NCBI GenBank assembly: GCA_016839445.1
Contig: JAEOUG010000021.1
Coordinates: forward strand, 1 to 35,630
DNA length: 35,630 nucleotides
Direction of reading: 5' to 3'
DNA from: Candidatus Thorarchaeota archaeon
Lineage (GTDB): Archaea > Asgardarchaeota > Thorarchaeia > Thorarchaeales > Thorarchaeaceae
Every line of letters begins with the position of its first letter. The stretch's first letter is position 1. Below the pieces are notes generated by a model. The model saw only the letters and a program-made list of their open reading frames with translations. It was not told where the DNA came from and did no database searches. The position numbers and the translations under genes are program-made. Below are positions 10,298 to 35,629 of this stretch, one piece after another.

Positions 10298-13200
10298 TTG
10301 ATGCGATCCATGAAACTGATGAACACAACATTCGCCCTGTTCATAGTCTCGTTGTTCGCCTTTTCCTGCTTCATATCAGGTAGCACAGCCGCCATTCCCG
10401 AATCCACTGCGGATACTGGTGCGGGGAACAATGCGCTCTCTGGTGTGAATCCCGTTGACAGAAGACTCCCCTCTGCTGAGGGCACCAATGTCAACTGGCA
10501 CTCGGAAACGGGATCCTACAACGATACTTGGACCTGGCAGCACAATAGCTGGCTGTACGGTCCCAGGTCGAGTTATGAGATCTTCTACCACAACGGCTCA
10601 CTAATGCAACGTGAGGACTTCATTCCAGTTGACGAGGAAGTCATTATCCGCGTCAACATCAACAAGGGTGTCCTGATGGGTGCCAGCATAAGCAGCGTCT
10701 ATGTGTCAGGTTCGCTCATGACACAAGACATGAATTTCTACGCTGGATTCTCCCTTGACTACTACAACGACACACTTGATCACTGGAATTCCTATTCTTA
10801 CAGTGAGAACTACACGAGCGGTTACTACAGTCCTCCGTATCTCTCAGTTGACGCTGGAGCGTGTCAAGTTGACGAAGATGACGCGATGTACTACGTGATC
10901 TTCAGTGCGACGTTCAACTCAACAACTCCAGTGGGTCTCTACAGCATGCATGTGAATGCCTATGACACCAACTTCGGATCCTATGACATTCGCTCCAGGT
11001 GGGCGGTCAGTGACATGGACTATGTTGACTTGGCCATTGGCCTACCTTTCAGAACCGCCTTCTCATCCACTCATAGTGGCGGGTACACTATCGAGAAGTT
11101 CGACCTCTCTGGTGACCCAATCTACAGCGTGAGCCGAGGCACAGACTTCATGATGCGCCTCAACATCAGTGCATTTTCTTCACTAGACTATGTGATTCTT
11201 GATGTGTACTCCTATGGAGTTCAGATTCCCGTCAACATGACCGGTGACCACGACATCACGGTCGTCAAGTACGGGGGATGGGTCTACGACTCAGATCTGG
11301 ACACTTACATCTACAACAGCTCAGCGCAATACACTGTTGTAGAGCGGGACTATGGGGACTACGTGGGAACCATGGACTTCCACGGATACCCGTACGTCGA
11401 TTACGAGTACAGATGGGCACGCTACAACTGGACCACCGATACCTATGAGGTTGTTCGCCAGCTTGATTCGCGTGAGATGAAGCTCGTACACATCTACAAC
11501 TTCACGAGTGCGTCATTCCAGACCGTCTATGGTTTCGCCTACACCGAGTATCCATCTGATGTGTATGTTGAGTCCCTGGCTCCTCAAACGATGTTCTATA
11601 CAGAGTCATTGGACAATGCCCCTGTCATCTTCACCGAGCTGAACGAGAGTCTCAGTTCGGTCTACAACTACGATGGTACCACAGTTGTGGAGTTCGGACT
11701 TCACTTCACGCAGCAGGCGCCGAAGGGGGCCCTGATGCATATCTGGGAGGAGGTCTACGATATCCATGGAGAACCGTACTGCGTAAGTGCTAGTGATATG
11801 CCTGAGGACCATGCTCCCATGACTTGGGATGAATACTATGACGCAACAGAGGTTGCCGTGGAGACCCCGGCGACCATCGCGAAGCTCATTCGCGTTGACG
11901 GCACTCCTGTGCACTCTTACTTCTTCCCTGCGAAACTGGGCGAACCCTTCATTGTGAGTGGTCGCCTTCAGGGAGGTTCTGATGTTGCCGATGACATCGA
12001 TGGTGCCTACCTCGAGTTGACCGCATATGATAGCTTCTGGTCAGAAGACGAATGGGGCTACTCAAATGTGATCTACGAGATACTGGTCCGGTCCGATTCA
12101 TCGGTCGTGCTGAATGCGTACAACTACAGCATGAAGGAGAATTACACCTACAGCACCTATTGGGACTACCTTGACACAGTAGTGACTGACTGGCACTGGG
12201 AGTACAATGAGGCTCTGGGAACTGACGAATGGGTCTACGGCGACCACATCGTCACCGAGTACATGGAGACTGAAGGCTGGCACTGGGAATGGTACTACTT
12301 CAACCAGAAGACTGGTGAATGGGTGCCTGAGCGTGACTGGTACAACTACGACTACAGATCAGAGCTGACCCGCGTCAGCCCGGGCTTCGCTTTGGTGACT
12401 GACGTGCAGCAGTATACCAGTGGTGGTGACCTCTACATGTCCTTTCAAGTTAATTTCACTGACGAGGTGCCCGAAACCTATCTGTATTGGCAATTCGACT
12501 TCGCTAACTACACCTGGGTCCGCGACTACAACTCGTACTATGGCTACCATGAGTCTGGGAAGTGGGTCGAGGACTGGGTATATAGCTTCGAGTACATGAG
12601 CAACGACCTCTGGGTGGGCATTTCATCTCAGATTGCGGTTGCGAACAACTCCATACCAGGTGCTGCTGATTGGATGGCTGTTCAGGAGGCTCCGTACATC
12701 ACGATTGGCGGTGTCAATTACCCGATTGTAGTCCGCGAGCTGATTGACTCCAGCTATGATGATCAGAGGATTCTCTTCTACGACAGTGCTGGAGACTACT
12801 ACGAACTCCTCAATGGAACCAAGATATACATCGAAGAGGAGAGAAACGCCTGGATCTACAACATCACAGTCGCAGGATACGGCTCGTTCCTCTCTGCTCA
12901 GGACTCGCCAGACCACTGGGACGATGGCACGGACTACTACTACAGCTGGTGGGACATCTATGGCAATGTGCATCAGGGCACTGATTGGATGATCTGGGAC
13001 AATCCCTATGTTACGGTGGAGTTTGTCAATGCATCGCCAGGCATCGCATCAAGTTACTATGTGCGAGTCGGCACTAGCGGCATGCTCGATGTCCAAGGAT
13101 GGGAGCGCAACGATCCGCGTACCGGAACCGAGTACATCCTCGACTTGGACGGGAATCGATATGACATCTACAGGATAGACTACAGCAGATACATTCTGTA

Positions 13201-16156
13201 CGAGTCAAGCCTTCAGCGCATCTCCTACGTTCGCCAGAGCTACGAGACCAGTTACATGAGTGCGCCCGCCTTCATCTTTGAAGGTTGGGCCATGCAGTAT
13301 CAGCAGTTCACTGTGGATGGTCACTTCGAGATGCCCTATCCCGGCGCTCTTGCTGACCGATGGGAGGCTAGTCAGACCACTGACCATTACGGCGCTGTCA
13401 GAACATCGAAGACAATCATGATAGACAGCACCCGCTACGAGATTGGTGGTGATCCCCTGACGGAGAACTGGTATGTAGGAGATTACTTCAACCACACCGG
13501 ATTCTGGGTGATTGTTGAATCTCAGAACTATACTCTAGGCGGTCAAAGACTCCTTGCAGCCAGCGTGAATGGAAGCATCATTTGGCAGCCGCTTGAAGTC
13601 GGAGCGCTTGCATCGTACGGCTCTCTCGATGGACTTGACTTCGTTGTCGAAGGTGAAGTCCAAGTAGACGACACTTACTTCATTCAGAGCAGATACCACC
13701 CTGTCTACGGCTATGAGACGAACTGGACAGTAACACTGCAGAATGGAACAGCCTTCTCCTGTGAACCGCGCAGAGTGTTTCAGGTCTACCTTCTTGATGT
13801 CATGGGTTCTCTTGTCTATTCCAAGGATTACATGTGGCAGTCTGAGATGCTCGGCAACGACAGTTACTACTACATCGAAGACTTGTACGGCGTTAGGCAC
13901 TACTTCGATGAAGGTATGTATCCTCCCACAGTGGATGTAGTAGTGACAGTGGGCTGGGAGGAGCGTGATGCTCTCGGTCTAGCGACGCTCCATTACTTCG
14001 TCAACGGCACAGAATACGTCGAGGCCATCGAAGGACTCTATGGTGACCTTATGATCTTCACCAATGGAACCCTCTCTGGCAAGTACTTCCACAGAACCGG
14101 CTGGGGTGATCCCGCCAATGATGCCCAATGGATCTACGAGATTCCGTTTGATGGGTCCTTCTACAATGTGACTGCAACTCGCGAATACATCTACAAGTTC
14201 GGCTACGTAGAGGGTCTTGACTGGGTCTATGAGCTTGCTCCGATTGAGTCGGTGACCTTCAGGAACTTCTATGAGATTATTGTAGGCAACCCCCGTGACT
14301 CCATGTGGGGACTTAGAGCCTGGGATGTTGCTCCCGAGAACAACGCCCTGGACCTAGATGGGGACTTGGAGACCACAGACGACCAGTACTATGTGCTGGA
14401 GTCGTATCAGTCGACTGACTCATGGCGCTCGGAATGGAGTCGCATGTGGGTAGATCTGATGTGGGACCCGAATGGAACCATCTTCGGGGACGAGATGAAC
14501 ATCCATTCTTGGATGGGCTTCGAGACCTACACTTGGGCCTATACCTGGCAGATGACCTTCTACTGGTACAATGCCCAGGACATGACGCCGGTGAGTGACG
14601 CTGAATTCGACACTATCACCGACATCGTGTTCGACGAGCACGGAGATCCCAATCCGGGCTACTGGGATGTCGCCTTCATGGCTGAGAACGTCACGTGGGC
14701 AGACATTCTTGCAGAGGCTGAGGAAGAAGGTTGGGACTGGATTAGTGGTGAGGAGCAGACATGGTCTTGGCTGAGCTTCGGAGTTGGCCAGCACTATGGC
14801 ATCTACTCCGAATCGAACTGGACCGACGTCTCTCTACGGTACGAATTCTCAGGTCTCATGATCTGGGATGACGCAAACAACAACTCCATCATGGAAACCT
14901 ACATGCTGACTCCTGGAGATGGTGAACTAACTCACTACTTCATCCCTGACTCTGTTGGAGCCATCGACTTCGTTACTCCTGGAATGTCGTTCGGCAACTT
15001 CGATGCCAACGGAACCATTCTTGCTGGAGTCGAGGATGAGATTGCGTGGGGTGTCACATTTACCGATGTAAATGGCACAACGTTCCCATTCAACGCCTAC
15101 GCGTACTGGGATTGGTACGGCGGAGTTGTCACCGGTTCTGACTTCAGAACCTTCGATGAGCGTCCGACTCGAGTATCAATAAGTGAGCTCGAGTTTCTGG
15201 TACACTTCCAAGGTCATCTGAATACTACTGAGGGTGCCTCCACGAACTACGCCGAGCTCAAGGTGGACAACACCGTTGGCCGGTGGAGTGTTGGCATGCT
15301 TGGGGGAATGGACAACCTTGAGGGCAGGTCACTAGCTCTGAACTACTTCGCTGACGTGAGCGTTTCATCGTTCTCCGTCAGGTCAGATAGCGAGGAAGTG
15401 ACAGGTGAGAACACCATCGTGTCTCCCACCTTCGAGATGGTCTCAGGGAGTCAGAGATTCGCGGAGATGATCATTGGAGGTGTGACATACGAATGGAACA
15501 AGGACCCCTACAACGTCTACAATGTGACAAGCCAGACGACACCCTTGAGCACCTTCAGATCTGCTTATGAGTCGGACACTGGCCAGTCGGCAACGTCCTG
15601 GACTTTTGCGTCGACCCAGTACTACGTCTCTATCGGATTCCCCTCTTGGGACGGTTACCGAGTCTATCAGGACCCAATCTTCGTGGGTTATGTCAGCAAC
15701 ACTGGATACAGCGGTGGCGAAGAGGAAGTGAAATTCCTGAGCTTCAGCATCTCGCCAGAGGTGCCTTCTTCCACTGATGCTGTGCAGGTTGGCGTGGACA
15801 TCGATACCGACCTGATAGTCACTGGCGTGGATCTCGATTACAGCACCGATGGAGTTGTATTCCACGGAACCTCGATCATGTCGGAGACAAGTCCTTCTCA
15901 CTATGTGGGCGAGATACCTCCTTACGTTGAGGGGACTCAGGTATGGTACAGAGTCGTTGTCCATACGGATTCTGGCATCTTTGAGTCCGCCGTGCAGTCC
16001 TACGTTGTGGGTTCTGGAGTGGTGACTACATCATCAACTACAGGATGGACCGGCCCCACAGGCGACGGTGAACTCCCAATGGAGCTCATCATGCTGGTTG
16101 GCGGCTTTGGCGTGGTTGTGATGCTGGTGGCTGTTCTGGCCAAGCGTCGTAAGTAG
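10298..16156 (+). CDS. Giant (1952 aa) secreted, C-terminally anchored surface protein of unknown function
   Basis: Uninterrupted 5.9-kb ORF with signal peptide, acidic Y/W-rich composition, many N-x-S/T sequons, DLDGD and DDANNN Ca-loop-like motifs, Ig-like C-terminal domain, Thr linker, TM + KRRK. Confidence 0.85.
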   Translation: MMRSMKLMNTTFALFIVSLFAFSCFISGSTAAIPESTADTGAGNNALSGVNPVDRRLPSAEGTNVNWHSETGSYNDTWTWQHNSWLYGPRSSYEIFYHNGSLMQREDFIPVDEEVIIRVNINKGVLMGASISSVYVSGSLMTQDMNFYAGFSLDYYNDTLDHWNSYSYSENYTSGYYSPPYLSVDAGACQVDEDDAMYYVIFSATFNSTTPVGLYSMHVNAYDTNFGSYDIRSRWAVSDMDYVDLAIGLPFRTAFSSTHSGGYTIEKFDLSGDPIYSVSRGTDFMMRLNISAFSSLDYVILDVYSYGVQIPVNMTGDHDITVVKYGGWVYDSDLDTYIYNSSAQYTVVERDYGDYVGTMDFHGYPYVDYEYRWARYNWTTDTYEVVRQLDSREMKLVHIYNFTSASFQTVYGFAYTEYPSDVYVESLAPQTMFYTESLDNAPVIFTELNESLSSVYNYDGTTVVEFGLHFTQQAPKGALMHIWEEVYDIHGEPYCVSASDMPEDHAPMTWDEYYDATEVAVETPATIAKLIRVDGTPVHSYFFPAKLGEPFIVSGRLQGGSDVADDIDGAYLELTAYDSFWSEDEWGYSNVIYEILVRSDSSVVLNAYNYSMKENYTYSTYWDYLDTVVTDWHWEYNEALGTDEWVYGDHIVTEYMETEGWHWEWYYFNQKTGEWVPERDWYNYDYRSELTRVSPGFALVTDVQQYTSGGDLYMSFQVNFTDEVPETYLYWQFDFANYTWVRDYNSYYGYHESGKWVEDWVYSFEYMSNDLWVGISSQIAVANNSIPGAADWMAVQEAPYITIGGVNYPIVVRELIDSSYDDQRILFYDSAGDYYELLNGTKIYIEEERNAWIYNITVAGYGSFLSAQDSPDHWDDGTDYYYSWWDIYGNVHQGTDWMIWDNPYVTVEFVNASPGIASSYYVRVGTSGMLDVQGWERNDPRTGTEYILDLDGNRYDIYRIDYSRYILYESSLQRISYVRQSYETSYMSAPAFIFEGWAMQYQQFTVDGHFEMPYPGALADRWEASQTTDHYGAVRTSKTIMIDSTRYEIGGDPLTENWYVGDYFNHTGFWVIVESQNYTLGGQRLLAASVNGSIIWQPLEVGALASYGSLDGLDFVVEGEVQVDDTYFIQSRYHPVYGYETNWTVTLQNGTAFSCEPRRVFQVYLLDVMGSLVYSKDYMWQSEMLGNDSYYYIEDLYGVRHYFDEGMYPPTVDVVVTVGWEERDALGLATLHYFVNGTEYVEAIEGLYGDLMIFTNGTLSGKYFHRTGWGDPANDAQWIYEIPFDGSFYNVTATREYIYKFGYVEGLDWVYELAPIESVTFRNFYEIIVGNPRDSMWGLRAWDVAPENNALDLDGDLETTDDQYYVLESYQSTDSWRSEWSRMWVDLMWDPNGTIFGDEMNIHSWMGFETYTWAYTWQMTFYWYNAQDMTPVSDAEFDTITDIVFDEHGDPNPGYWDVAFMAENVTWADILAEAEEEGWDWISGEEQTWSWLSFGVGQHYGIYSESNWTDVSLRYEFSGLMIWDDANNNSIMETYMLTPGDGELTHYFIPDSVGAIDFVTPGMSFGNFDANGTILAGVEDEIAWGVTFTDVNGTTFPFNAYAYWDWYGGVVTGSDFRTFDERPTRVSISELEFLVHFQGHLNTTEGASTNYAELKVDNTVGRWSVGMLGGMDNLEGRSLALNYFADVSVSSFSVRSDSEEVTGENTIVSPTFEMVSGSQRFAEMIIGGVTYEWNKDPYNVYNVTSQTTPLSTFRSAYESDTGQSATSWTFASTQYYVSIGFPSWDGYRVYQDPIFVGYVSNTGYSGGEEEVKFLSFSISPEVPSSTDAVQVGVDIDTDLIVTGVDLDYSTDGVVFHGTSIMSETSPSHYVGEIPPYVEGTQVWYRVVVHTDSGIFESAVQSYVVGSGVVTTSSTTGWTGPTGDGELPMELIMLVGGFGVVVMLVAVLAKRRK

Positions 16157-18454: not shown

Positions 18455-19273
18455 ATGGTTGAGGACCTAACGGTCATCAAGCTTGGCGGCTCTCTTCTTA
18501 CTGACAAGAAGGAGCCGTACACCTACAGGGAGGACATACTGGAATCAGCAGCTGCTGAGATTGCGGAATGTCTTTCTGAAGGTCTGATCAAGAATCTGGT
18601 CTTGCTGCACGGCGTGGGTTCGTACGGCCACCCCCCTGTTCTTGAACACAGCCTTCACAAGGGCTTCCGTAGCCCCGAGCAGCTTCTCCCTCTCTCCAAG
18701 ACGCAAGAGATTGTAGGAGTCCTTCGCCACACCATCGTGAAGGCGTTTCAGAAGGTGGGTATTCCAATCTGCTTGATGTATCCGTCTTCAATGGTGATAT
18801 CTGAGAAGATGAAGATCACAGACTACTACTTCGAGCCTCTGAAGGGCTTCGCGTCAGTCGGCATGGTCCCACTGCTTGGCGGCGATATTCTGGTCGACAG
18901 GGCTATGGGCTGGAGTGTCGGAAGCGGCGACCAACTGGCTGTTACAATCTGTCAGGAGCTCGGGGCAATCCGTCTTGTGTTTGCCACGGATGTGGGCGGA
19001 ATCTACGAGTCTGACCCTAAGGTCGAGCCTGATGCAGTCCATATCGGACGCGTGAATCTGAACGAGCTTGATGCCACTCTAGAAAGGATGGGCAAGTCCG
19101 GGCTTGTCGATGCATCAGGTGCGATGAAGGGTAAGATACAATCTGTTCTGCCTGCCAAGCCGCTGATTGAGAAGGGTCTCGAGGTTGGATTCCTGTCCAT
19201 GATGGAACGAGGGAATCTGAAGCGATTCCTTTCGGGTGAAGAGTGCGTCTGCACGCGAGTTGTTGTAGAGTAG
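18455..19273 (+). CDS. ipk: Isopentenyl phosphate kinase (amino-acid kinase fold)
   Basis: VIKLGGSLLTDK, HGVGSYGH with the IPK-diagnostic His, P.LGGD, SGD, TDVGGIY..DP, DASGAMKGK. Confidence 0.88.
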   Translation: MVEDLTVIKLGGSLLTDKKEPYTYREDILESAAAEIAECLSEGLIKNLVLLHGVGSYGHPPVLEHSLHKGFRSPEQLLPLSKTQEIVGVLRHTIVKAFQKVGIPICLMYPSSMVISEKMKITDYYFEPLKGFASVGMVPLLGGDILVDRAMGWSVGSGDQLAVTICQELGAIRLVFATDVGGIYESDPKVEPDAVHIGRVNLNELDATLERMGKSGLVDASGAMKGKIQSVLPAKPLIEKGLEVGFLSMMERGNLKRFLSGEECVCTRVVVE

Positions 19274-24496: not shown

Positions 24497-25642
24497 ATGC
24501 AATACAGAAGGCTGGGCAGAATCTCTGATAGGGTGTCGGCGCTTGGATTCGGCTGCATGCGCCTGCCTACTCAGGAGGACAGAGGCCCCATCGACAGGGC
24601 GGAGGCAGTCAGGCTCATTCGGAAGGGAATCGACAATGGGATCAACTACGTTGATACGGCTTGGACATATCACCGCGGAGAGAGCGAAGTTGTCCTGGGC
24701 CTGGCTCTGAAGGATGGATACCGTGAGCGGGTCACTCTTGTAACGAAGTGCCCTGTCGGACGAGATGATTTCACCGAGCCCGAGCACTTCGACAAGTACC
24801 TTGACGAGCAGATGGGACGATTAGATGTAGACTCTCTCGACGTATACCTATTCCATGCGCTCAACAAGAAGACGTATGAGGAGAAAGTCGTCGCCCTCAA
24901 TCTTGTAGAGCGCGCGATGAAGGCGAAGAAGGAAGGGAAGATCAAACACCTGGGATTCTCCTTTCACGACACGCCTGAGGTTCTCAAAGAGATCATTGAC
25001 TCAGGTGATTTCGACCTTATGCTTGTGCAATACAACATCGTGGACCAGGTGAACCACGACATGATCAACTACGCAGGAGAGAAGGGTCTCGCAGTGGCAA
25101 TCATGGGACCCGTTGGCGGCGGGCGTCTTGCAGGAAAGCATCTACCTGAAGAGATGAGGAAGTGGCTGACAGCCGGTAGGGACAACCTGGCGGACCTAGC
25201 CTTCAAGTTCGTACTCAGTAATCCCAACGTTTCAGTTGCTCTGTCTGGAATGGGCAGTGAAGAGATGCTCGATGACAATCTGCAGATTGCCTCGAGAGAT
25301 GACTACGACCGGCTGACCAAGCAAGAGGAGAAGTCCGTTGAGGGGATAGCGAGAAGATTCAAGGAACTCTGTGACCTCGTGTGCACGGGATGCAAGTACT
25401 GCGAGCCCTGTCCAAACGAGGTGAGTATCAGCTTCATCTTCGAAGCTCTGCAGCGCTACCAAATCTACGGGGACCATGAGGACGCTAAGGCAAGATACGC
25501 AGCCATAGGGAAGATACCTTGGGCAAAAGGAGAGAACGCAGAAGCCTGCATTGAATGTGGTGAATGCTTGGAGAAGTGCCCCCAAGGCATCGACATCATC
25601 AACCAGCTAAAGAAGGCACACGAGTTCCTGTATTCGGGTTGA
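24497..25642 (+). CDS. Aldo/keto reductase with C-terminal Fe-S (4Fe-4S dicluster-type) domain
   Basis: VSALGFGCMRLP, GINYVDTAWTYH.GESE, GFSFH, CTGCKYCEPCP, CIECGECLEKCPQ. Confidence 0.93.
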   Translation: MQYRRLGRISDRVSALGFGCMRLPTQEDRGPIDRAEAVRLIRKGIDNGINYVDTAWTYHRGESEVVLGLALKDGYRERVTLVTKCPVGRDDFTEPEHFDKYLDEQMGRLDVDSLDVYLFHALNKKTYEEKVVALNLVERAMKAKKEGKIKHLGFSFHDTPEVLKEIIDSGDFDLMLVQYNIVDQVNHDMINYAGEKGLAVAIMGPVGGGRLAGKHLPEEMRKWLTAGRDNLADLAFKFVLSNPNVSVALSGMGSEEMLDDNLQIASRDDYDRLTKQEEKSVEGIARRFKELCDLVCTGCKYCEPCPNEVSISFIFEALQRYQIYGDHEDAKARYAAIGKIPWAKGENAEACIECGECLEKCPQGIDIINQLKKAHEFLYSG

Positions 25643-26275
25643 GCAGCGGGACCACTTCGGTAGAGCAAGCTCGGCAGCCTGCAGTTTCCGCTGATGACGC
25701 CGACTTAGAATGAACACCACGGAAATAGAAGCGAAGATGAAGAGCGCCGCTCCCAGTAGAGTCAAATCTGCGTCGAAGTACCAGGCCCTATTCATCGCCA
25801 CGGGGAAGGAGTATGCTACTGTATCGGAAACATAGATGCGGCAGTCTAGCACCCATCTGATTCTGATGTAGATTGTCTCATTGGTGGCCACATCGAAGGG
25901 AAACGGTGTCAGAGGGGAGTTGTGTACTTCGTACAGGCCTGAGCCGTTCGCGCTGATGTCTGGTGGCACGCGCTTTCCGAGTTCACGCCAGCTCTGGTTG
26001 TCCTTCGAGAGAAACAGTGACTCATAGTAGCCGAAGCTCACAAGCAGAGGGCACTCGAATTCAGGGATTTGCAGCCATGAGTACCTGATCTCGAGATACT
26101 TGGACCACCAATCTGTCTTAACCGCGACTGAGTCCATTGTGATGTAATCCGTTATGGGTTCCGTCGGGAACTGAAGCGCAATTAGGGTGGGCTCTGGCTG
26201 TCCTGTGTTGAGCAACACGGAACCAACAACGAATGCCACAAGCACGAAGATGGCTGTCCTACTCAGCCAAACCAC
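25607..26275 (-). CDS. Hypothetical secreted protein with C-terminal TM anchor
   Basis: N-terminal hydrophobic signal, beta-rich middle, TM + RRHQRK. 3' end overlaps the convergent AKR gene by 36 nt. Confidence 0.65.
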   Translation of the reverse strand: MVWLSRTAIFVLVAFVVGSVLLNTGQPEPTLIALQFPTEPITDYITMDSVAVKTDWWSKYLEIRYSWLQIPEFECPLLVSFGYYESLFLSKDNQSWRELGKRVPPDISANGSGLYEVHNSPLTPFPFDVATNETIYIRIRWVLDCRIYVSDTVAYSFPVAMNRAWYFDADLTLLGAALFIFASISVVFILSRRHQRKLQAAELALPKWSRCSTRIQELVCLL

Positions 26276-26351: not shown

Positions 26352-28433
26352 TTACACGTTTCTCCTGAGCTTGCCTGTCTTGATTAGGATGACCAAGGCA
26401 ACAGGGATTGCCACGATGATGCCAGCAAGGGACAGGAACAGAGGATTCAGCACGTTTGAGGATCCAGGTAGTTGGCCGTATAGCAGCACAGATGCCACAA
26501 TGCCGTCACTGTTCTCGACTTGGAGTATAATGTACCTGACGCCGTCGGGTAGAGTAGTGATCGATATCAACTTCTCAGCGACTAGCCACTGAGGCTGAAA
26601 TACCAGTGAATCCTGATAGACCTCCTCGCCGTTGACAAGGATACGAACCTCGCCTGTTGAGGTGTGCATCTGCTTCACGCAATTGTAGACGGAGAGATTC
26701 AGGAATAGAGTGTGTTGGTTTACATTGAGATTCTGCTGGTTGATGTGAACTACAGGTTCCTCGTAGAATCGTTCCAGTCTGTGTGCCCAGTAGTACGTTC
26801 CTTCGCCTCCGCAGATCTGGAGTTCCCAGACAATCTCTCCTTCAGGGGAGACCTCTGTGAAGATTACAGGAACAGGTCTAGCTTGAACTAGTGCCATGTT
26901 CCCGAATATTCCAAGAGTGTTTCCATCAGGCAACCTATCTGCATCGCCACCAGACTCAGAGAAGTAGTAGGTTTCATTCATGGCATACCAAGACCAGATC
27001 TCTCGCAGAATCTGGTTTTCTTCGTCCAGCTCAATCTCAATGAACCCAGATATCCCCGTCCCGTTTTGTGTCATTGAGGTTGGTACATCAGGATTGAAGA
27101 GACCATTGTCAAACAGCATGTAGTGGTCCTCACCAACCCATTCAAGACTATGAGGGTAGTTGAAGACCGTGTCAACCTCAGTTCCATTGAGAGTGAGAAC
27201 TGTGAAATTCCCCCAACGACCTGCCTTCCAGATGATCTCGCCTGTATCTTTGTCAATCTTCAGAAGCGTGTCCTGATTTCTTACGTTCAGCCAGATTGTG
27301 TTCTCTTCTTTGTCCCACGAGAAGCTATTGGCGTGCATCCAATCTGCGTAACCTCTGAAGGTGTAGTTGTGGCCAAGCCAAGTGTGGACTGTCGAATTGA
27401 ATGGGTAGTGTACCCTAGCATCCCACTGCCAGAGGAGGTCTCCATCCCAATTGTATTCGCTGATAGTATCGTAGATGACCTCTAGACCATCCCAGATTTC
27501 GCCGGAGGTCGCAGTTTCCAGAACCATGAATGTGTCAGTTGCAGGATTGTAGTCGAGTTCATGATGTCCTGCCGGAACCGGCAGTGTGACACGAGTATCA
27601 GTTTCGATGTTCCAGAGTTCCATCCATCCGTCAGAGCCGCCCATCATCACAGTGGTGGAATTCATGAACTTGTGTACACTATGCATTGCATCATTCAGCT
27701 GATTGACAACCTCGCCCTTGTCGTTGACTATGAGGACTTTCCCAGAACCCATTGAACCAATCTGTGCTGATTCATTTGCTATGATGATCTCCATGCATGG
27801 GAATAGTGTCAGCCCGGATGTATACGAACCCTCCTCCTGGTGAGTCATTCGAAACTCGATGATTCCGGATGAGTAGTAGATTGCGGCATCCATGATGGTG
27901 TAGGAGAAGATGGTATTGAGCCTGTCAATCTTGAGAGCGATACCAAGAGTCCCGTCGAAGTCGACCTCACCTCGTTGAAAGGCTGAAGCAGCCGTCGTTT
28001 GGCAGCTGAATACTTCTATCAAGGTATCAAAGCTCAGAGCTATGGTGACATCCGTCTCGACCGGCGCAACCAGCTTGGCCTCAAGGTCGAGTGTATCATT
28101 CTCTACAACGAACCAGAGGTATCCTGTGTCTATGATGTCCAGAACAGCTGTTATCTCCCATCCCGTTGTGATCTCAATGGCTTCCGGTTGATGGGCCGCA
28201 ACATACTCCGAGAAGACTGAGAAATTCTCCATGTCATCCCAGGTGAAATCTCCTCTTGATAGCTTATCCTTCAGGTCTGCCTTCATTGCTCGAATCTCTG
28301 CGGGGGCGTCGTCGAGATTCAGAGGCTCGGGTGGCGGTGGGTTGAGAATGCCGTTCAGGACGTAGAGAAAGGATGATACTCCTATCAAAGCTACAAGCAG
28401 GATGACAAGGAGTCCCTTGTATCTTCTCCTCAT
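26352..28433 (-). CDS. Aryl-sulfate sulfotransferase (ASST beta-propeller) with N-terminal SCP2-like domain, membrane-anchored at both ends
   Basis: ASST motifs GHHEL, DWMHANS, NVRNQD..KID..TGEIIW, NYPHS, LFDNG, GDADRLPDGNTL. SCP2-like segment DVTIALSFDTL..VFS..TTAASAFQRGEVDFDGTLGIALKI. Start MRRRYKG + TM; C-terminal TM + basic tail. Confidence 0.82.
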   Translation of the reverse strand: MRRRYKGLLVILLVALIGVSSFLYVLNGILNPPPPEPLNLDDAPAEIRAMKADLKDKLSRGDFTWDDMENFSVFSEYVAAHQPEAIEITTGWEITAVLDIIDTGYLWFVVENDTLDLEAKLVAPVETDVTIALSFDTLIEVFSCQTTAASAFQRGEVDFDGTLGIALKIDRLNTIFSYTIMDAAIYYSSGIIEFRMTHQEEGSYTSGLTLFPCMEIIIANESAQIGSMGSGKVLIVNDKGEVVNQLNDAMHSVHKFMNSTTVMMGGSDGWMELWNIETDTRVTLPVPAGHHELDYNPATDTFMVLETATSGEIWDGLEVIYDTISEYNWDGDLLWQWDARVHYPFNSTVHTWLGHNYTFRGYADWMHANSFSWDKEENTIWLNVRNQDTLLKIDKDTGEIIWKAGRWGNFTVLTLNGTEVDTVFNYPHSLEWVGEDHYMLFDNGLFNPDVPTSMTQNGTGISGFIEIELDEENQILREIWSWYAMNETYYFSESGGDADRLPDGNTLGIFGNMALVQARPVPVIFTEVSPEGEIVWELQICGGEGTYYWAHRLERFYEEPVVHINQQNLNVNQHTLFLNLSVYNCVKQMHTSTGEVRILVNGEEVYQDSLVFQPQWLVAEKLISITTLPDGVRYIILQVENSDGIVASVLLYGQLPGSSNVLNPLFLSLAGIIVAIPVALVILIKTGKLRRNV

Positions 28434-28516
28434 GCCGGAGTGCACATGTGGAAGCACGATATAAGTCTAGTATTAAGCTACAGAAACTCCGCTCATAGCC
28501 AGCCTCATTACTTGAA

Positions 28517-31117
28517 TCAGCTGGACTCTCTGCGCTTGAGCTCGTCTTGTACCTCTTTGAGTTTGAGAAGTGCATCCATGGGAGTTGTACGTTCTAGGTC
28601 CAAATGCTTCAGCTTCTCGAGGAGGGGGTCTTCTGCCACGAGTGCTTCAAGTGTCGTCTGCACCTGCTCAACGCGTGTGTTTCTGTCCGGCAGCGAAAGG
28701 TTGTTCTCTCTCTCAATCGTAGCCAAGATCTGTTTCGCTCTCTTCACAACAGACTCAGGCACTCCAGCTAGACCTGCAACCTGCACTCCATAGCTCTTGT
28801 CGGTGCCTCCGTCCACGACTTTGTGAAGGAAGACAATTGTGTCGCCGGACTCCTTCGCAAGCGTGTGAACATTCTGAACCCCATGGTACTGAGAAGCCAT
28901 GTCGGTGAGCTGATGGAAGTGGGTTGCGAAGAGCGCGCGGGTCTTCATCTGCACAATCCTCTCTGCGACGGCCCATGCTAGAGCCATGCCATCAAAGGTC
29001 GAGGTGCCCCTTCCAATCTCATCTAGAATGACCAAGCTGCGCTCTGTGGCGTTGTTTAGAATGTTGGCGGTCTCAATCATCTCTATCATGAATGTGCTCT
29101 GCCTAGCTGTCAGGTCATCAAACGCCCCTACACGAGTGAAGATGCGGTCCACTAACCCAATCTCTGCAGACTTCGCCGGTACGAAGGAGCCCATCTGGGC
29201 TAGGAGTACAATCAATGCACACTGGCGCATGTACGTGCTCTTACCTGCCATGTTTGGCCCGGTGACAATCTGCAGAGTCTTGCCGCCGTCGCCAATCTCG
29301 ATGCTGTTTGGTACGAACTCATTCCGGCCCAGTATCATTTCCATTGATGCATGGCGCCCGTCGACTATGTTGATCCTGGTTCCCTCGGTCACTATCGGCC
29401 TGCAGTACTGCCGCTTCACTGCAACATCTGCAAGCGAAACCAGAACGTCAGCTACTGCAATAGATGCCGAGTCCTTGCGGAGCGTTTCTGACACCTTCTC
29501 GACTTCTTCTCTCAGAGCATCATAGATCTCATACTCAAGGCTGTTGATCTTCTCCTCCCCTGCGAGAACCGATGCTTCTTTCTCTTTCAGTTCGGGCGTC
29601 ACAAAGCGTTCAGCATTGGCAAGTGTCTGCTTTCGTTCGTAGTCTTCCGGAACCATGTTCAGGTTGGATTTCGTCACCTCGATGTAGTAGCCAAAGACCT
29701 TGTTGAAGCCAACCTTGAGTGACTTGATTCCAGTCCTTCTTCTTTCAGAGGTCTGCAGCGACGCAATCCATTTCTTGTCCGATTGGATGGATCCCTTGAG
29801 CTTGTCAAGAGCTTCACTGAAGCCCTCCTTAATCATGCCTCCTTCCTTGACAGAAACGGGAGGGTCATCGACAATGGCCGAATGGAGTGTTTCATGAAGT
29901 CCGGGCAGGGGATCGATGGAAGAGGCGCATCCCTTCAGGAGCTGGCTCTTGCAGTCCTTGAGCGACTTCTTTATCTTCGGAATCTTTGCTAGGGCGTTTC
30001 TTAGTGATAGAAGATCCCTTGCTCCTGACTTCCCGAAGACTATTCGGCTTGTCACTCGTTCAAGATCCCCGAGGTCTCTGAGGCTGTCTTCTACTCCCTT
30101 ACGAACCAATGCATCTCTCGCCAGTTCCTCAACCGCATCTAGCCTCTCGCCTATAGCCGTGAGATCTCGAAGTGGCTGCAATATCCATTGTTTGAGTTTC
30201 CGTTTTCCCATTGGCGTGATGGTCTCATCTAGAACACTCAGGAGGGTTCCTCTCTTGCTTCCATCGCGGGCGTTCCTAGTGAGTTCGAGATTCCTCTGTG
30301 TAGTCGGGTCAACAATCATGTGCTCTTCGATTGAATATGTTCTGATGCCTGAGAGTGCAATCGAAGCCGCCTTGTAGACATCTCTGAGGTATGCCATGAC
30401 TGCGCCTGCCGCACCCAATGCTGCCCTCTTGTCGGTGATACCGAAGCCTTCGAGTGTGGCCACGCCAAAGTGCTCCTTGATGTAACCTTCTGCCGAGTGT
30501 GCAGAGAAGTCATGGTCATTGCGAATTGTCACTCTTGCAGCAAGTTCCTCAATCTGTGGATTGCCCCTGTGCTTGGACATGCTATCAGGCAGCAGGACCT
30601 CAGAAGGTGACAACCTTGCGACCTCATTCAAGGTCTTGTCGTCATTGATTCGTCCTGCGAACTCCGTGGCAAGGAACTCCCCTGTTGAAACATCAACCAC
30701 AGCCACACCCACAGTATCCTCATGTTCGACAAGGGCAACCAAGTAGTTGTTAGTCGCATCCTCAAGAATCGAGCTCTCAAGAACTGTTCCAGGAGTCACG
30801 ACTCTGACTACATCCCTCTTAACAAGTCCCTTGGCCTGAGACGCATCTTCCACCTGATCAGCAATTGCCACAGTGAATCCTGCCTGCAGCAGCTTGGCGA
30901 CATAGCCATCGACGGCATGATAGGGGACTCCACACATTGGCCAGCGATCCACTCCCTCTCCTCTTGCGGTCAGGACAATATCGAGTGTCTTGCTTGCCAG
31001 CTTGGCATCTTCATTGAACATCTCGTAGAAGTCACCAAGCCTGAACATCAGTATGGAGTCAGGATGTAGCCGCTTGAGCTGCAGGTATTGCCGCTGCATG
31101 GGAGTCTGCTTGGCCAC
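28517..31117 (-). CDS. mutS: DNA mismatch repair protein MutS (MutS1)
   Basis: TPM..QY, mismatch-binding FRLGDFYEMF, VVTPGT, Walker A TGPNMAGKSTY, STFMIEM, DEIGRGTST, FATHFH, SYGVQVA. Confidence 0.97.
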   Translation of the reverse strand: MAKQTPMQRQYLQLKRLHPDSILMFRLGDFYEMFNEDAKLASKTLDIVLTARGEGVDRWPMCGVPYHAVDGYVAKLLQAGFTVAIADQVEDASQAKGLVKRDVVRVVTPGTVLESSILEDATNNYLVALVEHEDTVGVAVVDVSTGEFLATEFAGRINDDKTLNEVARLSPSEVLLPDSMSKHRGNPQIEELAARVTIRNDHDFSAHSAEGYIKEHFGVATLEGFGITDKRAALGAAGAVMAYLRDVYKAASIALSGIRTYSIEEHMIVDPTTQRNLELTRNARDGSKRGTLLSVLDETITPMGKRKLKQWILQPLRDLTAIGERLDAVEELARDALVRKGVEDSLRDLGDLERVTSRIVFGKSGARDLLSLRNALAKIPKIKKSLKDCKSQLLKGCASSIDPLPGLHETLHSAIVDDPPVSVKEGGMIKEGFSEALDKLKGSIQSDKKWIASLQTSERRRTGIKSLKVGFNKVFGYYIEVTKSNLNMVPEDYERKQTLANAERFVTPELKEKEASVLAGEEKINSLEYEIYDALREEVEKVSETLRKDSASIAVADVLVSLADVAVKRQYCRPIVTEGTRINIVDGRHASMEMILGRNEFVPNSIEIGDGGKTLQIVTGPNMAGKSTYMRQCALIVLLAQMGSFVPAKSAEIGLVDRIFTRVGAFDDLTARQSTFMIEMIETANILNNATERSLVILDEIGRGTSTFDGMALAWAVAERIVQMKTRALFATHFHQLTDMASQYHGVQNVHTLAKESGDTIVFLHKVVDGGTDKSYGVQVAGLAGVPESVVKRAKQILATIERENNLSLPDRNTRVEQVQTTLEALVAEDPLLEKLKHLDLERTTPMDALLKLKEVQDELKRRESS

Positions 31118-31209: not shown

Positions 31210-33201
31210 CTATGGGCTGGGGCCTCCTCCTCTCCTTCTAATGAAGACCACTGCCACCAAGACCCCCGCTGCTACTGAACCAATGCCAATTCCGTACGCT
31301 ATGAATAGGATGGGATTTGCACCTTCTCGGAATATTCTAGAGAGCAGAAAGGTCTTCAGCACCAGGTTGACTCGAGTTCCATTGTCCTCACTGCACAGAC
31401 AGACCAACTCGTCATTGCCCATAACAAGAATCGAGCATGGCAGCATAGGTGTCCGCTCACCTCCTTGGTTCAATTGAGAGGACACCGAGCCAGTGAGGTT
31501 TAGGTCTGTCTTGAAGAGGACCTTGACGCTGTCATACCTGTAGGTTTCTGCGAGCACGATGAGCGAGCCGCTGTCAGTCAAACATGTGGCCTTGCATTCC
31601 AGGAACTCGTACCATTCGCCTTGGTATACGACCTCCATAGTGATTCTCTTCTTGGATTCTCCGCTTGATGTCCACTTCTCAACATGCAAATGGGTGGCAT
31701 TAGCTGATGTGGTGAAGAGTCCCCCGGTGCTGTCAACCATAACATCATGAAAACACCTTGTGGCAGGAGTTGTCAAGTTCCACCTCTGTGAGCCGTTCAA
31801 ATACCAAGAGCTCAACCGATTGGGTTCGAGGGTGAATATGGTTTCGTTCGACAACGCAATACTGTGGCCAAGCTCGATGCCATGCCACCAAGGCAGATAC
31901 CACTCCTCACTGATCACGGTCCATTGATGGGTTCCATTCTCGCTGAATTTCAGGAGCTCGCTCCTCATTGTGAATATCAGCTCACCTACCTCTAGGTAGA
32001 AGACTCCTGCGACATAGATTGAGTGATCGTGAGATACGGCAATGTCGATTTCCAGCGCGTCATAGTAATCCCCCCAATAGGCCACCCACTCCTGTTCCCC
32101 CTCCTCGCTCCATTTCGCTAGAAAGCCTTGATGAGCGTACAAGTACGAGCTGGTATTGCGCGTGATTCCTGCCGTGAGGAGGTCCTGCGAATCTGAAACC
32201 AGAGCAAGCGCTACCGCTGACCCATTTCCATTCCAGGGGTCTTCTAGGTTGCGCTGGTCCAGATTGACCAAGACATGGCTGTGGGTGTCAGATGGTTGAT
32301 ACCAAGAACGAGGTTGTAGATTGGCCAGTCCGAATCTCATCCCGCTGGTGGTCACTGCTAATCCCTTGCAGAAGAGATGCCCCTGAGTTGTGGAAAGGAC
32401 TTCAGTCGTAGTCGGCGACGGAACCTGCCCTATGGGAATGGCTTCAGAGAGTAGGGCTTCTACTTGGAAGCTGTCTACGGTAAGCTTCACTTGCCCATTG
32501 TAGTGCAGCCAAGGTTCGTAGTCAACCCATTGCTCGAACCTGTAGGTGGGCGAGAGCGCGATTAGAATATGGAATCCTGAAACAGGCTCTCCGTTCTCAT
32601 CAAAGCAGTCCTCGAGAACGTTATCCCAAGCGTAGGTGATAGATCCTTGTGGCAGTTCCTGACTCTTCGTAACGGACCCTTCACTATCTGTTGGGAAATG
32701 AAGAATGGGATACCAGTCCGAAGGTGACTCGGTTGTCTTCACGTACACCGTGCACTCGAACATCTGGCGGCCATCCTCTTCAGTGGCAAAGTCTCCAGTG
32801 ACCTCCAATCTCGCAACCATTGCTGCCCGAAGACCATCAGGTTGCCTGTTCTCGGCCCAGAATGCATTCTCGGTCAGTCTGACATGATCTAGACAATCCG
32901 GCCATCCAAAGCCCTTTGAGGCCCAATTGAGGGGAGTGCCCGCCACATGTGTCCAAACGAGGTCGGCTGAGTTCGATGTTGAGTTCCATCCTGAGCTGAA
33001 CTCTCCAGATGTCCCCACGTTTGTCATGTTTGGTTCCGTGGTCAGGTTCGGGTTGGGAACTAGCTGCAGTGTATTGGCAGCTGGGGAAACATATGCCGCA
33101 TCATGAGTGTTAGAGTCAGGAGGGAGGTTGGCAGAGAGTGAGAGCACTAGGAGGAGAACGAAGGCAATCCCTATCGTTTCTTCACTCTGCAAGGTCTTCA
33201 C
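31210..33201 (-). CDS. Secreted, C-terminally anchored surface protein with a C-terminal beta-propeller-like region
   Basis: Hydrophobic N-terminus, repeated 'L.K(W/F)S..G...W' blades (AKWSEEGEQEW, LKFSENGTHQW, SWYLNGSQRW, EKWTSSG), TM + RRR. Confidence 0.7.
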   Translation of the reverse strand: MKTLQSEETIGIAFVLLLVLSLSANLPPDSNTHDAAYVSPAANTLQLVPNPNLTTEPNMTNVGTSGEFSSGWNSTSNSADLVWTHVAGTPLNWASKGFGWPDCLDHVRLTENAFWAENRQPDGLRAAMVARLEVTGDFATEEDGRQMFECTVYVKTTESPSDWYPILHFPTDSEGSVTKSQELPQGSITYAWDNVLEDCFDENGEPVSGFHILIALSPTYRFEQWVDYEPWLHYNGQVKLTVDSFQVEALLSEAIPIGQVPSPTTTEVLSTTQGHLFCKGLAVTTSGMRFGLANLQPRSWYQPSDTHSHVLVNLDQRNLEDPWNGNGSAVALALVSDSQDLLTAGITRNTSSYLYAHQGFLAKWSEEGEQEWVAYWGDYYDALEIDIAVSHDHSIYVAGVFYLEVGELIFTMRSELLKFSENGTHQWTVISEEWYLPWWHGIELGHSIALSNETIFTLEPNRLSSWYLNGSQRWNLTTPATRCFHDVMVDSTGGLFTTSANATHLHVEKWTSSGESKKRITMEVVYQGEWYEFLECKATCLTDSGSLIVLAETYRYDSVKVLFKTDLNLTGSVSSQLNQGGERTPMLPCSILVMGNDELVCLCSEDNGTRVNLVLKTFLLSRIFREGANPILFIAYGIGIGSVAAGVLVAVVFIRRRGGGPSP

Positions 33202-33613: not shown

Positions 33614-34807
33614 ATGCAACGGCAGAAGTATGATGTAGCCGTCGTAGGAGCAGGTCCTGCCGGCACTATGGCCGCCAAAGCAATTGCCGAGAGGGGACAT
33701 GAAGTCATCATACTGGAGAGAAGGCGCGCCGTTGGAATACCCGTTCAGTGCGGAGAATTCCTTCCCGCTGGGAAAGAGATCTCGGACATGTTTCCTCATT
33801 CCCCAAGAATGGCGCGTCTCGTTGAGATCCCTCGAAGGTTCACGCTAAATAGAACATCGCGGATTCGTCTGGTGTCTCCGCGAGAGCACAGCTATGAGTT
33901 CGACTTCGAGTCGAACATAATTGACAGACGTCGCTATGACGCTCATCTTGCCGAGCGAGCAGTAGAAGCGGGAGCAGAGCTGTCACTTGGGTTTCGGGTT
34001 ATTGCCCGCGAATCAAAGGAACTCCTCAGAGTCAAGTCCTCGTCAGGAGTTGGGACTGTCTCGGCAAAGGTAATTGTCGGAGCAGACGGTCCTGTTTCAC
34101 TGATATCTCGCTCCATTGGTAATCCGTACGACCGCCAAGACAGGGACCTCAGTCTCTCTCTGCATAGAGTCTATTCCAACGCCGATGTCGACCCCCGTGT
34201 TGTAGAGATGATATTCGGAGGTAGGGCCGCCCCTGGGGGATATGGCTGGACCATACCCAGAGGAAACAGAGAGGCCAACGTTGGCATCGGAGTTAGGAAG
34301 AGCATGGCTCTGGGCAATGCACCCCTGAAGAGCTACTTGGACTACGTTGTCAGGAGAGTTCCGGGGAGGTATAGTGACGCCGAAGTAGTCAGATCTGTAG
34401 GAGCTCTCATTCCGGTTGGAGGTCCAGTGGCTTACACAACTCGTGGAAACACAGTCATTGTTGGTGATGCCGCCGGCCATGTAATGGCCACGAACGGAGG
34501 TGGGATTCCGACAGCTCTCTGTGGTGGCGAGATGGCTGGCGAGGCCGTGTCGAGTCATCTGGAGAACGGGACTCCCTTGAACAGATACGATGCTCTCTGG
34601 CAATCAGAATTCGGTACTGAACTTCGAGCCTCACTTGCGGCACTCAGGCTGGCTGACAGAGTCATGGGGTCTGACAGCCTGACGGAAGTTGGAATGGCCC
34701 TAATGCGGGCAAGATTCCTTGAGCCGATAATCAGGTGCAGGCTTCCACTTCCCTCAGGAATGATGTCTGGTGCTGCGGTTTCTGTTCTACGCCGGCTCCT
34801 TGGATAG
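33614..34807 (+). CDS. Geranylgeranyl reductase family FAD-dependent oxidoreductase
   Basis: YDVAVVGAGPAG, PVQCGE, VGADG, PGGYGWTIP (YxWxFP-like), VGDAAG..ATNGGGI. Confidence 0.9.
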   Translation: MQRQKYDVAVVGAGPAGTMAAKAIAERGHEVIILERRRAVGIPVQCGEFLPAGKEISDMFPHSPRMARLVEIPRRFTLNRTSRIRLVSPREHSYEFDFESNIIDRRRYDAHLAERAVEAGAELSLGFRVIARESKELLRVKSSSGVGTVSAKVIVGADGPVSLISRSIGNPYDRQDRDLSLSLHRVYSNADVDPRVVEMIFGGRAAPGGYGWTIPRGNREANVGIGVRKSMALGNAPLKSYLDYVVRRVPGRYSDAEVVRSVGALIPVGGPVAYTTRGNTVIVGDAAGHVMATNGGGIPTALCGGEMAGEAVSSHLENGTPLNRYDALWQSEFGTELRASLAALRLADRVMGSDSLTEVGMALMRARFLEPIIRCRLPLPSGMMSGAAVSVLRRLLG

Positions 34808-34810
34808 AGA

Positions 34811-35629
34811 TTAGCTCTCCCTCTCTACTGCAAAGGATGCTAGAGCTATCAGGTGGTTCTCGTTCTCGAATCCCTTTCCAAGTATGGCGCTGACCGCCTT
34901 CTCTGCGTAGTCCCGCGCGACACTCTGCGAGTACTCGACTGCTCCAACCTTCTCAATCACTCTCAGCGCTTTCCGCAGGTTTCCACTTGCGAGTGCCTCC
35001 AGGCAGGAGTCTGTGATCTCATCCGGGCATTCCTCAAGTGTGTGAACCAGGACGTAGTTCGGCTTGTTGCCCTTGAGGTCCGAGAGAACGCTCTTGCCGA
35101 TTCGTTTTCGGCTGGACGTGACGTCCAGAATGTCATCTCTTACCTGAAAGGCTAGTCCTAGCATCTCGCCATACTCTGCGAGGCTGGCCTCCTCCTCTGC
35201 GGTCGCATCTCCAAGAATCGCCCCTATTCTGGCAACTGCCTGCATGAAGGCTGCAGTCTTCCTACCCACAATGTCGAAGTATTCCTGTTTGGTGACGACG
35301 TGTTTTGGGTTGGCAAGAGTAAGCAGGTCCGCTGCCTCGCCCTCAGCCATTCGGATTCCTGTAGTCGAGACCATCTTCAGTAGTTCTGGTGTGGCTTGCT
35401 CTCCAACCAGCTTGACTGCCATCCCTATGAGCAGGTCTCCCGCAAGAACCGCCATTCGATTACCGAACTTCCTGTGAGTGCTCTCTACACCACGCCGCAT
35501 ATCATCATCATCAATGAAGTCATCATGCATCAGACTTGCTGTCTGCATGAACTCAGTAGCAACTGCGTAGGGAAGCATGTCTGTTATATTGCCTCCCACT
35601 GCCTCGCAGGTGAGCAGCATCAACAGTGA
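34811..35629 (-). CDS. trans-polyprenyl diphosphate synthase, 5'-partial
   Basis: FARM HDDFIDDDDMRRG, AVLAGD, KTA, SARM FQVRDDILD, GK..SDL. The frame is open to the window edge. Confidence 0.92.
   Translation of the reverse strand, partial: SLLMLLTCEAVGGNITDMLPYAVATEFMQTASLMHDDFIDDDDMRRGVESTHRKFGNRMAVLAGDLLIGMAVKLVGEQATPELLKMVSTTGIRMAEGEAADLLTLANPKHVVTKQEYFDIVGRKTAAFMQAVARIGAILGDATAEEEASLAEYGEMLGLAFQVRDDILDVTSSRKRIGKSVLSDLKGNKPNYVLVHTLEECPDEITDSCLEALASGNLRKALRVIEKVGAVEYSQSVARDYAEKAVSAILGKGFENENHLIALASFAVERES

Follow-up and report, generated by a model that had tools for sequence, protein, structure and literature searches.

Introduction

The natural donors, acceptors and roles of aryl-sulfate sulfotransferases (ASSTs) have been described as largely unknown (PMC13426309). 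During caprazamycin biosynthesis in Streptomyces, the enzyme Cpz8, which depends on 3'-phosphoadenosine-5'-phosphosulfate (PAPS), makes phenolic sulfate esters that are used as donors by the ASST-type enzyme Cpz4 (PMC4257720), and Cpz4 is reported to sulfate a sugar hydroxyl of the liponucleoside (PMC13426309). For the Escherichia coli enzyme, AssT, the active site is given as His252, His356, Asn358, Arg374 and Thr501, and the residue that becomes transiently sulfated as His436 (PMC13426309), and a seven-strand N-terminal beta-sandwich has been described for the E. coli and Salmonella ASSTs. Among lipid-transfer folds, SCP2 is one of the few common to archaea and eukaryotes (PMC12139934), and for UbiJ's SCP2 domain, binding of the polyisoprenoid tail of ubiquinone intermediates has been proposed (PMC9499169). 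Here a gene is described in which these two folds meet. It lies in a 35,630-nucleotide stretch of DNA from Candidatus Thorarchaeota archaeon (assembly GCA_016839445.1, contig JAEOUG010000021.1), the whole of which is referred to below as the window.

The product of this gene, P0001, carries an SCP2-fold domain fused to an ASST propeller, and the fusion is confirmed by Pfam matches above the cut-off for both domains and by fold models that agree with them. As far as the searches reach, its relatives form an Asgard-restricted family of predicted ASSTs whose lipid-binding domain and membrane tethers have no precedent. The reading preferred here, to which a probability of about 50% is given, is that these proteins are PAPS-independent, ASST-type sulfotransferases at the outer face of the membrane, in which the SCP2 domain presents lipids and which, across the family, work in relay with a PAPS-type partner.

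Architecture of the fusion protein

The gene and its domains are as follows.

26352..28433, minus strand: whole coding sequence of the SCP2-ASST membrane protein, 693 amino acids plus stop (open reading frame list and translation P0001)
28344..28415, minus strand: N-terminal transmembrane helix or signal anchor, residues 7-30, preceded by RRRYK (hydropathy; AlphaFold2 helix)
27891..28301, minus strand: SCP2-fold domain, residues 45-181 (Pfam PF02036, profile matches, domain model, Foldseek)
26766..27866, minus strand: ASST-type beta-propeller, about residues 190-556 (Pfam PF05935, AlphaFold2 model, Foldseek)
26475..26753, minus strand: C-terminal seven-strand beta-sandwich, residues 561-653 (DSSP on the AlphaFold2 model; pLDDT, the predicted local distance difference test, mostly 92-96 in this block)
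26376..26444, minus strand: C-terminal transmembrane helix, residues 664-686, followed by KTGKLRRNV (hydropathy; AlphaFold2 helix)

The protein thus runs from an N-terminal transmembrane helix through SCP2, the propeller and the sandwich to a second transmembrane helix, and the full-length AlphaFold2 model has a pLDDT of 87.5 and a predicted template modelling score of 0.83. An earlier note on this DNA, made from the letters alone, had proposed the fusion and listed its motifs, all of which were located in P0001. An NCBIfam scan of P0001 gave no meaningful match, and a whole-protein search of the ESM Atlas returned ASST clusters only, at scores below 0.9 that serve as leads, with no SCP2 plus ASST cluster among them.

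A longer version of the reading frame exists (26352..28457, minus strand, 701 amino acids) with a GTG start; the ATG at 28433 fits the consensus start of the homologues, MRxRTK. An A/T-rich stretch located 26-43 nucleotides upstream of the ATG could be TATA-like, although this is only a reading, and a scan for bacterial-type promoters and terminators found sites that were not more numerous than in shuffled sequence.

The SCP2 domain

The SCP2 signature was found at DVTI (residues 128-131), AASAFQRGEV (148-157) and ALKI (166-169). The single-sequence match to Pfam SCP2 (PF02036; E=5e-5, 24.0 bits against a cut-off of 21.3, residues 90-172) is marginal, and the domain was therefore tested in three further ways, by profiles, by fold and by library search. 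Two profiles, A1 built from 54 full-length homologues and A3 from 32 domain-only sequences, both match Yarrowia SCP2 (4jgx; E=1.7e-5 to 2.7e-5), and the family profiles also match SCP2 from Helicoverpa (4uei; E=9e-5) and from human and rabbit (about 2e-3). Similarly, an AlphaFold2 model of residues 42-185 (pLDDT 94.8, five strands and six helices) bears out the SCP2 fold that the earlier note had expected: Foldseek against the Protein Data Bank (PDB) gave 46 matches at E<=1e-3, of which the best 34 are all SCP2-fold structures. The top match is UbiJ-SCP2 (6h6o; E=8.2e-7, TMq 0.58, about 10% identity), followed by the alkylsulfatase SdsA1 (2cfu; E=9e-7, TMq 0.61, root-mean-square deviation (rmsd) 2.9 Å over 119 columns), so that the comparison with SdsA1 first drawn in that note was apt. 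Pisa1 matches with an rmsd of 2.8 Å, and further matches include the SCP2-like domains of SdsAP and YjcS and classical SCP2 from yeast, human, insects, Thermus and Archaeoglobus.

The library search with A3 against 1.84 billion representative proteins returned 260 matches at E<=1e-3, and a Pfam check of 28 among the 150 listed found mostly bona fide SCP2 proteins, with E down to 1e-55. In addition, a precomputed PF02036 label is present on 50 of the 86 family members described below. It is reasonable to suppose that the protein would act on lipophilic substrates. A complex prediction of the SCP2 domain with the propeller and sandwich (score 0.00, mark 0.32) speaks neither for nor against docking between them.

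The propeller and its active site

Pfam Arylsulfotrans (PF05935) matches residues 233-540 with E=5.2e-25 and 88.7 bits (cut-off 24.2), covering model positions 30-363 of 374. Using the full model in Foldseek, Cpz4 (9kf4) was matched at E=4.7e-22 and the E. coli ASST (3elq/4p05) at about 1e-13, and the 11 best matches are all Cpz4 and E. coli ASST chains. Four motifs, GHH (289-291), WMHAN (365-369), VRNQ (384-387) and YPH (426-428), hold the candidate active-site residues.

27561..27569, minus strand: GHH, residues 289-291, putative first active-site histidine(s); H290 and H291 kept in all 54 homologues
27327..27341, minus strand: WMHAN, residues 365-369, counterparts of E. coli His356 and Asn358 (HMMER alignment to 3elq/4p04)
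27279..27281, minus strand: Arg385, counterpart of E. coli Arg374 (3elq alignment; 54 of 54)
27150..27152, minus strand: His428 of YPH, counterpart of E. coli His436 and putative nucleophile forming the sulfo-histidine (alignment; 54 of 54)

In the HMMER alignments H367 falls on His356 and N369 on Asn358. H428 aligns exactly with the histidine of the Cpz4 motif WQH and lies one residue off His436 in the E. coli motif TQH, and H291 aligns with Cpz4 H139. The His/His/Asn/Arg/His set that had been read from the sequence is kept: all 54 homologues have H290, H291, H367, R385 and H428, and 52 of the 54 have N369. Overall identity of these homologues to the query is just 38-75%, and the invariance of five catalytic-site residues across sequences this divergent argues for retained catalysis. 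The ASST domain looks catalytically competent on this evidence.

Membrane anchors and orientation

P0001 has hydrophobic segments at residues 4-31 and 658-690, and a hydrophobic segment is found at each end of all 54 homologues. The N-terminal anchor and second transmembrane segment proposed earlier therefore hold, with AlphaFold2 helices at 3-30 and 664-686, and the domain called Ig-like is indeed a seven-strand beta-sandwich in the model, although the label itself reflects a secondary-structure pattern alone. Median net charge across the homologues is +4 in the first 10 residues and +3 in the last 12. Under the positive-inside rule, such positive termini would be cytoplasmic, and SCP2, propeller and sandwich would face outward. 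The predicted ectodomain also carries 11 N-X-S/T sequons where 4.8 are expected (0.65% of 2000 shuffles reach 11).

A double-anchored, sequon-rich predicted surface protein could also be imagined as a non-catalytic adhesin or envelope component with a leftover ASST-like propeller and SCP2-like fold, and the other surface proteins beside it in Heimdallarchaeota and Hodarchaeota loci, PKD-domain proteins and a family of 290-320 residue proteins with a signal and a transmembrane segment, would suit such a role. This explanation is rejected as very improbable, as the five catalytic-site residues are invariant in all 54 homologues.

Distribution of the family

Searching a collection of 5.8 billion proteins identified 86 family members (P0002-P0087) at E<=2.5e-121, mostly 690-710 residues long, and all source names given among them belong to Asgard lineages (Thor-, Hermod-, Hod-, Heimdall-, Sif- and Lokiarchaeota, Promethearchaeota or 'Asgard group'). 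Thorarchaeota and Promethearchaeota are both placed in the kingdom Promethearchaeati. The next matches are distant ASSTs lacking SCP2, with E of at least 3e-40. Likewise, a scan of one genome per species yielded 46 loci, of which 42 hold family genes, all in metagenome-assembled genomes (MAGs) from Asgard archaea or an 'uncultured archaeon'; the other four are a weak, partial match in an archaeon (L043) and distant ASSTs from bacteria (L044-L046). Several MAGs hold two or three paralogues belonging to different tree clades (L001/L003/L009; L002/L011; L007/L008; L016/L019; L017/L034).

Among the matches listed in the A3 search, the sole full-length protein of about 700 residues (domain at 44-187) is P0044, the family's own representative, and no other SCP2 plus ASST architecture was seen in the 28 other A3 matches scanned with Pfam. 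The databases already give the family an automatic name, 'aryl-sulfate sulfotransferase'. Literature searches found no description of the SCP2-ASST family and none relevantly pairing Asgard archaea with ASST or sulfotransferase, and the word 'archaea' is absent from a recent survey of ASST clades. The fusion had been unfamiliar to the earlier note; it is not unique to the window, being conserved across Asgard archaea.

A predicted PAPS-type sulfotransferase beside many family genes

Open reading frames of the 46 loci (flanks up to 6 kb per locus) and of the window were clustered by BLASTP, and neighbours were counted for the 42 family genes, which encode at least 400 residues and are at least 36% identical to the query. 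One cluster, c1 (about 380 residues), occurs in 19 of these loci and lies directly adjacent to the family gene in 17 (L012, L014-L016, L018-L020, L025, L031, L033-L039 and L041; for example L035:4788-5927 and L036:4793-5926). Of the adjacent genes, twelve share the strand of the family gene at gaps of 0-321 nucleotides, and five are divergent. Pfam assigns c1 to Sulfotransfer_3 (E=3.9e-18) and Sulfotransfer_1, no transmembrane segment was found in any of 18 members, and the motifs aRaGtT and RnP..HIAS align with sulfotransferase chains in the PDB. These motifs may be read as PAPS-binding loops, and c1 is likely to be a cytoplasmic PAPS-type sulfotransferase.

Fifteen of the 23 family genes that lack c1 belong to two Thorarchaeota-type clades (nine in clade A, six in clade B together with L027), and seven more have less than 400 nucleotides upstream; L017 is the one gene that lacks c1 despite full flanks. 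A quick, unrooted maximum-likelihood tree, built from 33 full-length members, shows c1-linked genes in all three deep clades and places clades A and B together in a derived group with good support (99). The simplest reading, though not a proven one, is that the pairing with c1 is ancestral and was later lost.

A cytoplasmic PAPS-type enzyme paired with an outward-facing ASST suggests the logic of Cpz8 and Cpz4 spread across a membrane. In the mechanism proposed here, a transmembrane helix at each end would tether the enzyme to the outside of the cell membrane, with the SCP2 lipid-binding domain beside the membrane. First, the propeller would transfer the sulfuryl group of an aryl-sulfate-type donor to His428. 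His290/291, His367, Asn369 and Arg385 would hold the sulfate, and the group would then pass to a hydroxyl acceptor. SCP2 would pick a lipid-tailed donor or acceptor from the membrane and present it to the active site, a role that would parallel that of the SCP2 domains in UbiJ, which deals with isoprenoid-tailed phenols, and in the alkylsulfatases, which deal with alkyl sulfates. Family-wide, a two-step relay is probable, with this enzyme as its later half: the cytoplasmic PAPS-type neighbour would charge a carrier with sulfate, which the outer enzyme would then hand on where PAPS is unavailable.

A more specific and rather doubtful version supposes that activated sulfate is exported on a lipid-tailed aryl carrier (quinol-, alkylphenol- or pyrone-like), which would be loaded by the PAPS-type enzyme, flipped across the membrane and lifted by SCP2, with the sulfate going to surface glycans, proteins or lipids. 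Such a carrier, if it exists, would be the sulfate counterpart of the dolichol-phosphate-sugar donors of extracytoplasmic glycosylation, and the enzyme would provide the first physiological role for an ASST outside antibiotic biosynthesis.

The same gene pairing bears on two other explanations. Family members could be scavenging or detoxifying surface enzymes that draw on sediment-borne aryl sulfates and hydrophobic phenols as donor and acceptor, with SCP2 capturing poorly soluble aromatics or alkyls and with neither an endogenous lipid nor a cytoplasmic link. Natural substrates of most bacterial ASSTs are given as unknown, with small exogenous phenols usually suggested (PMC13426309), the paralogue in the window has no PAPS-type neighbour, and two to three paralogues per genome (L001, L003 and L009 come from one isolate) fit diversification towards varied external substrates. 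However, scavenging does not readily account for the tight adjacency of c1 in 17 of 42 genes, spread over all deep clades, and two transmembrane anchors would keep SCP2 near the membrane and not exposed to bulk solute. Scavenging is considered unlikely, though it is the strongest of the competing explanations.

Net desulfation of lipophilic sulfate esters (sulfated lipids or sterol-like compounds), with sulfate released or relocated to gain sulfur or carbon, the job of an alkylsulfatase on a different scaffold, is less probable still. It draws on the SCP2-like domains of SdsA1 and Pisa1, which are among the closest structural matches, and on family fragments that match Pfam Alkyl_sulf_C weakly (E about 1e-4). 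The catalytic domain, by contrast, is ASST-type and no metallo-beta-lactamase domain is present. Moreover, the ping-pong mechanism makes ASSTs dependent on donors with a good leaving group (a phenolate, for example), alkyl sulfates are poor donors, and an adjacent PAPS-type sulfotransferase points to the making of sulfate esters and not to their breaking.

Several observations weigh against the preferred reading of a lipid-presenting ASST in relay with a PAPS-type enzyme. The SCP2 Pfam score of P0001 is 2.7 bits over the cut-off. GHH is paired with E. coli His252 only indirectly, through Cpz4 H139, and a comparison of residues 233-345 with solved structures returned generic WD-type propeller repeats, with no E. 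coli alignment in that region. For the outward orientation, which is probable, the only grounds are the positive-inside rule and the excess of sequons. No type III polyketide synthase or other gene for making a phenolic carrier was found among 25 neighbour representatives scanned with Pfam. Finally, tblastn (E<=1e-2) found no c1 homologue in the 35.6-kb window, and neither clade A (nine genes) nor its sister clade (five genes and L027) has a PAPS-type partner in the fetched flanks, so that the relay may not apply to the paralogue in the window.

Other neighbours were also recorded. In L031 (1885-4645) and L037 (clusters c24 and c45), genes for a NeuB-type nonulosonic acid synthase and for a cytidylyltransferase/GT28 fusion stand beside that of the PAPS-type sulfotransferase, which hints at a link to surface glycan synthesis. 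The 290-320 residue proteins of the Heimdallarchaeota and Hodarchaeota loci adjoin the family gene and have a signal, a C-terminal transmembrane segment and no Pfam match (L015:8056-9018, L018:7186-8058, L024:2535-3407, L031:8184-9053, L032:1696-2565, L037:5708-6580, L042:817-1761); they are homologous to the C-terminal 230 or so residues of ASST paralogues of 1052-1063 residues in the same clusters (L029:2411-5569, L034:1521-4694, L037:6655-9846). In clade B (L008-L011 and L028), the family gene is preceded not by a sulfotransferase but by genes of the type I phosphodiesterase/nucleotide pyrophosphatase family and for a threonine/serine dehydratase (for example L010:2373-3521 and L028:4986-5957).

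The locus in the window

The window gene is a member of clade A, a derived Thorarchaeota paralogue clade. In six of the nine clade A genes (L001-L004, L007 and L013), genes for a PadR regulator and a 470-residue flavoprotein of the geranylgeranyl reductase family follow directly 3' on the same strand (for example L013:8087-8629 and L003:3162-4568), often with a FAD_binding_4 oxidase after them. The window departs from this arrangement, as a 222-residue transmembrane reading frame and then an aldo-keto reductase with a ferredoxin domain lie downstream. The 222-residue frame (25607-26275) was considered as a partner and set aside, having no Pfam or NCBIfam match and no relative in any related locus, and an ESM Atlas search with it gave nothing usable.

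The isoprenoid-related genes of the window and its MutS and MutL genes are listed below.

18455-19273, plus strand: isopentenyl phosphate kinase (NF040647, 152 bits, cut-off 120)
33614-34807: geranylgeranyl reductase family gene, 5 kb upstream of the family gene
34811-35623: polyprenyl synthase
28517-31117, minus strand: MutS, full-length and bacterial-type, with all five MutS domains, ending 84 nucleotides upstream of the ATG
6689-8494, minus strand: MutL

The presence of the first three genes, together with the PadR and geranylgeranyl-reductase-family pair after most clade A genes, is what favours the idea, put forward in the earlier note, that the enzyme sulfates or desulfates isoprenoid alcohols and so feeds an isoprenoid-alcohol kinase in the window. 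That kinase proves to be isopentenyl phosphate kinase, encoded on the opposite strand at a distance of 7 kb, and none of the 41 related family loci has a homologue of the kinase nearby. Archaeal isopentenyl phosphate kinase is a cytoplasmic enzyme of the mevalonate pathway that acts on isopentenyl phosphate, and an extracellular product would not reach it. The proposed feeding is therefore not supported, and isoprenoid-alcohol sulfation in this form is regarded as the least probable of all the explanations, with next to no weight.

Elsewhere in the window, a 194-residue reading frame (3793-4377, minus strand) matches Pfam Sulfotransfer_4 (E=1.6e-38) and is taken as a PAPS-type sulfotransferase; it is unrelated to c1 and lies 22 kb from the family gene. 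A 663-residue frame upstream of MutS (31210-33201, minus strand) has no Pfam or NCBIfam match, and a homologue of 653 residues (cluster c26) stands upstream of the family gene in L002. A frame of 1952 residues (10298-16156, plus strand) matches no Pfam family at E<=1e-3.

Significance

The family offers unusually clear hints on the donors, acceptors and roles of ASSTs through its predicted lipid-binding domain, its fixed position at the membrane surface and its conserved PAPS-type partner gene. If the relay is true, it would explain how sulfation could take place outside the cytoplasm, where PAPS is absent. It would also point to sulfated surface lipids or glycans in Asgard archaea, a group whose surfaces and lipid-handling proteins matter for questions of eukaryote origins. 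Furthermore, an ASST directed at membrane lipids could serve the cofactor-free sulfation of hydrophobic alcohols.

Comparison with known systems

As in the type III alkylsulfatases (SdsA1, Pisa1 and SdsAP), an enzyme type that handles sulfate esters is here fused to an SCP2-like domain. Those enzymes have a metallo-beta-lactamase catalytic domain and a C-terminal SCP2, whereas P0001 has no Pfam match to Lactamase_B, and by its sequence the Asgard protein is not a member of that group. Its SCP2 domain is closest in structure to that of UbiJ (6H6O), which is proposed to keep the isoprenoid tail of phenolic ubiquinone intermediates available to partner enzymes, although UbiJ works in the cytoplasm as an accessory protein to a bacterial metabolon and is not fused to an enzyme.

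Like E. coli AssT (3ELQ), the Asgard protein belongs to PF05935, has the propeller fold and carries counterparts of His356, Asn358, Arg374 and His436, although sequence likeness is weak (single-sequence E=0.06 to 0.09). AssT is extracytoplasmic, and the Asgard protein would likewise face outward. AssT is soluble, while the Asgard protein has a transmembrane helix at each end, and the beta-sandwich that is N-terminal in AssT comes after the propeller here, SCP2 being at the N-terminus. The N-terminal sandwich is an accessory domain that is also absent from Cpz4, so that its absence does not bar membership among the ASSTs.

Cpz4 of caprazamycin biosynthesis (PDB 9KF4/9KF6) is the best match in both sequence (profile E=4.3e-9) and structure, although identity in the structural alignment is merely 18-19%. 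It differs from the Asgard family in being a bacterial protein of 472 residues without SCP2, encoded in an antibiotic gene cluster, and, unlike in caprazamycin biosynthesis, a carrier-making polyketide synthase was not seen among the Asgard neighbour representatives scanned. In both systems the histidines are kept and, as with Cpz8 and Cpz4, a PAPS-type sulfotransferase gene lies next door to the ASST-type gene, in the Asgard family at 17 of the 42 genes though not in the window.

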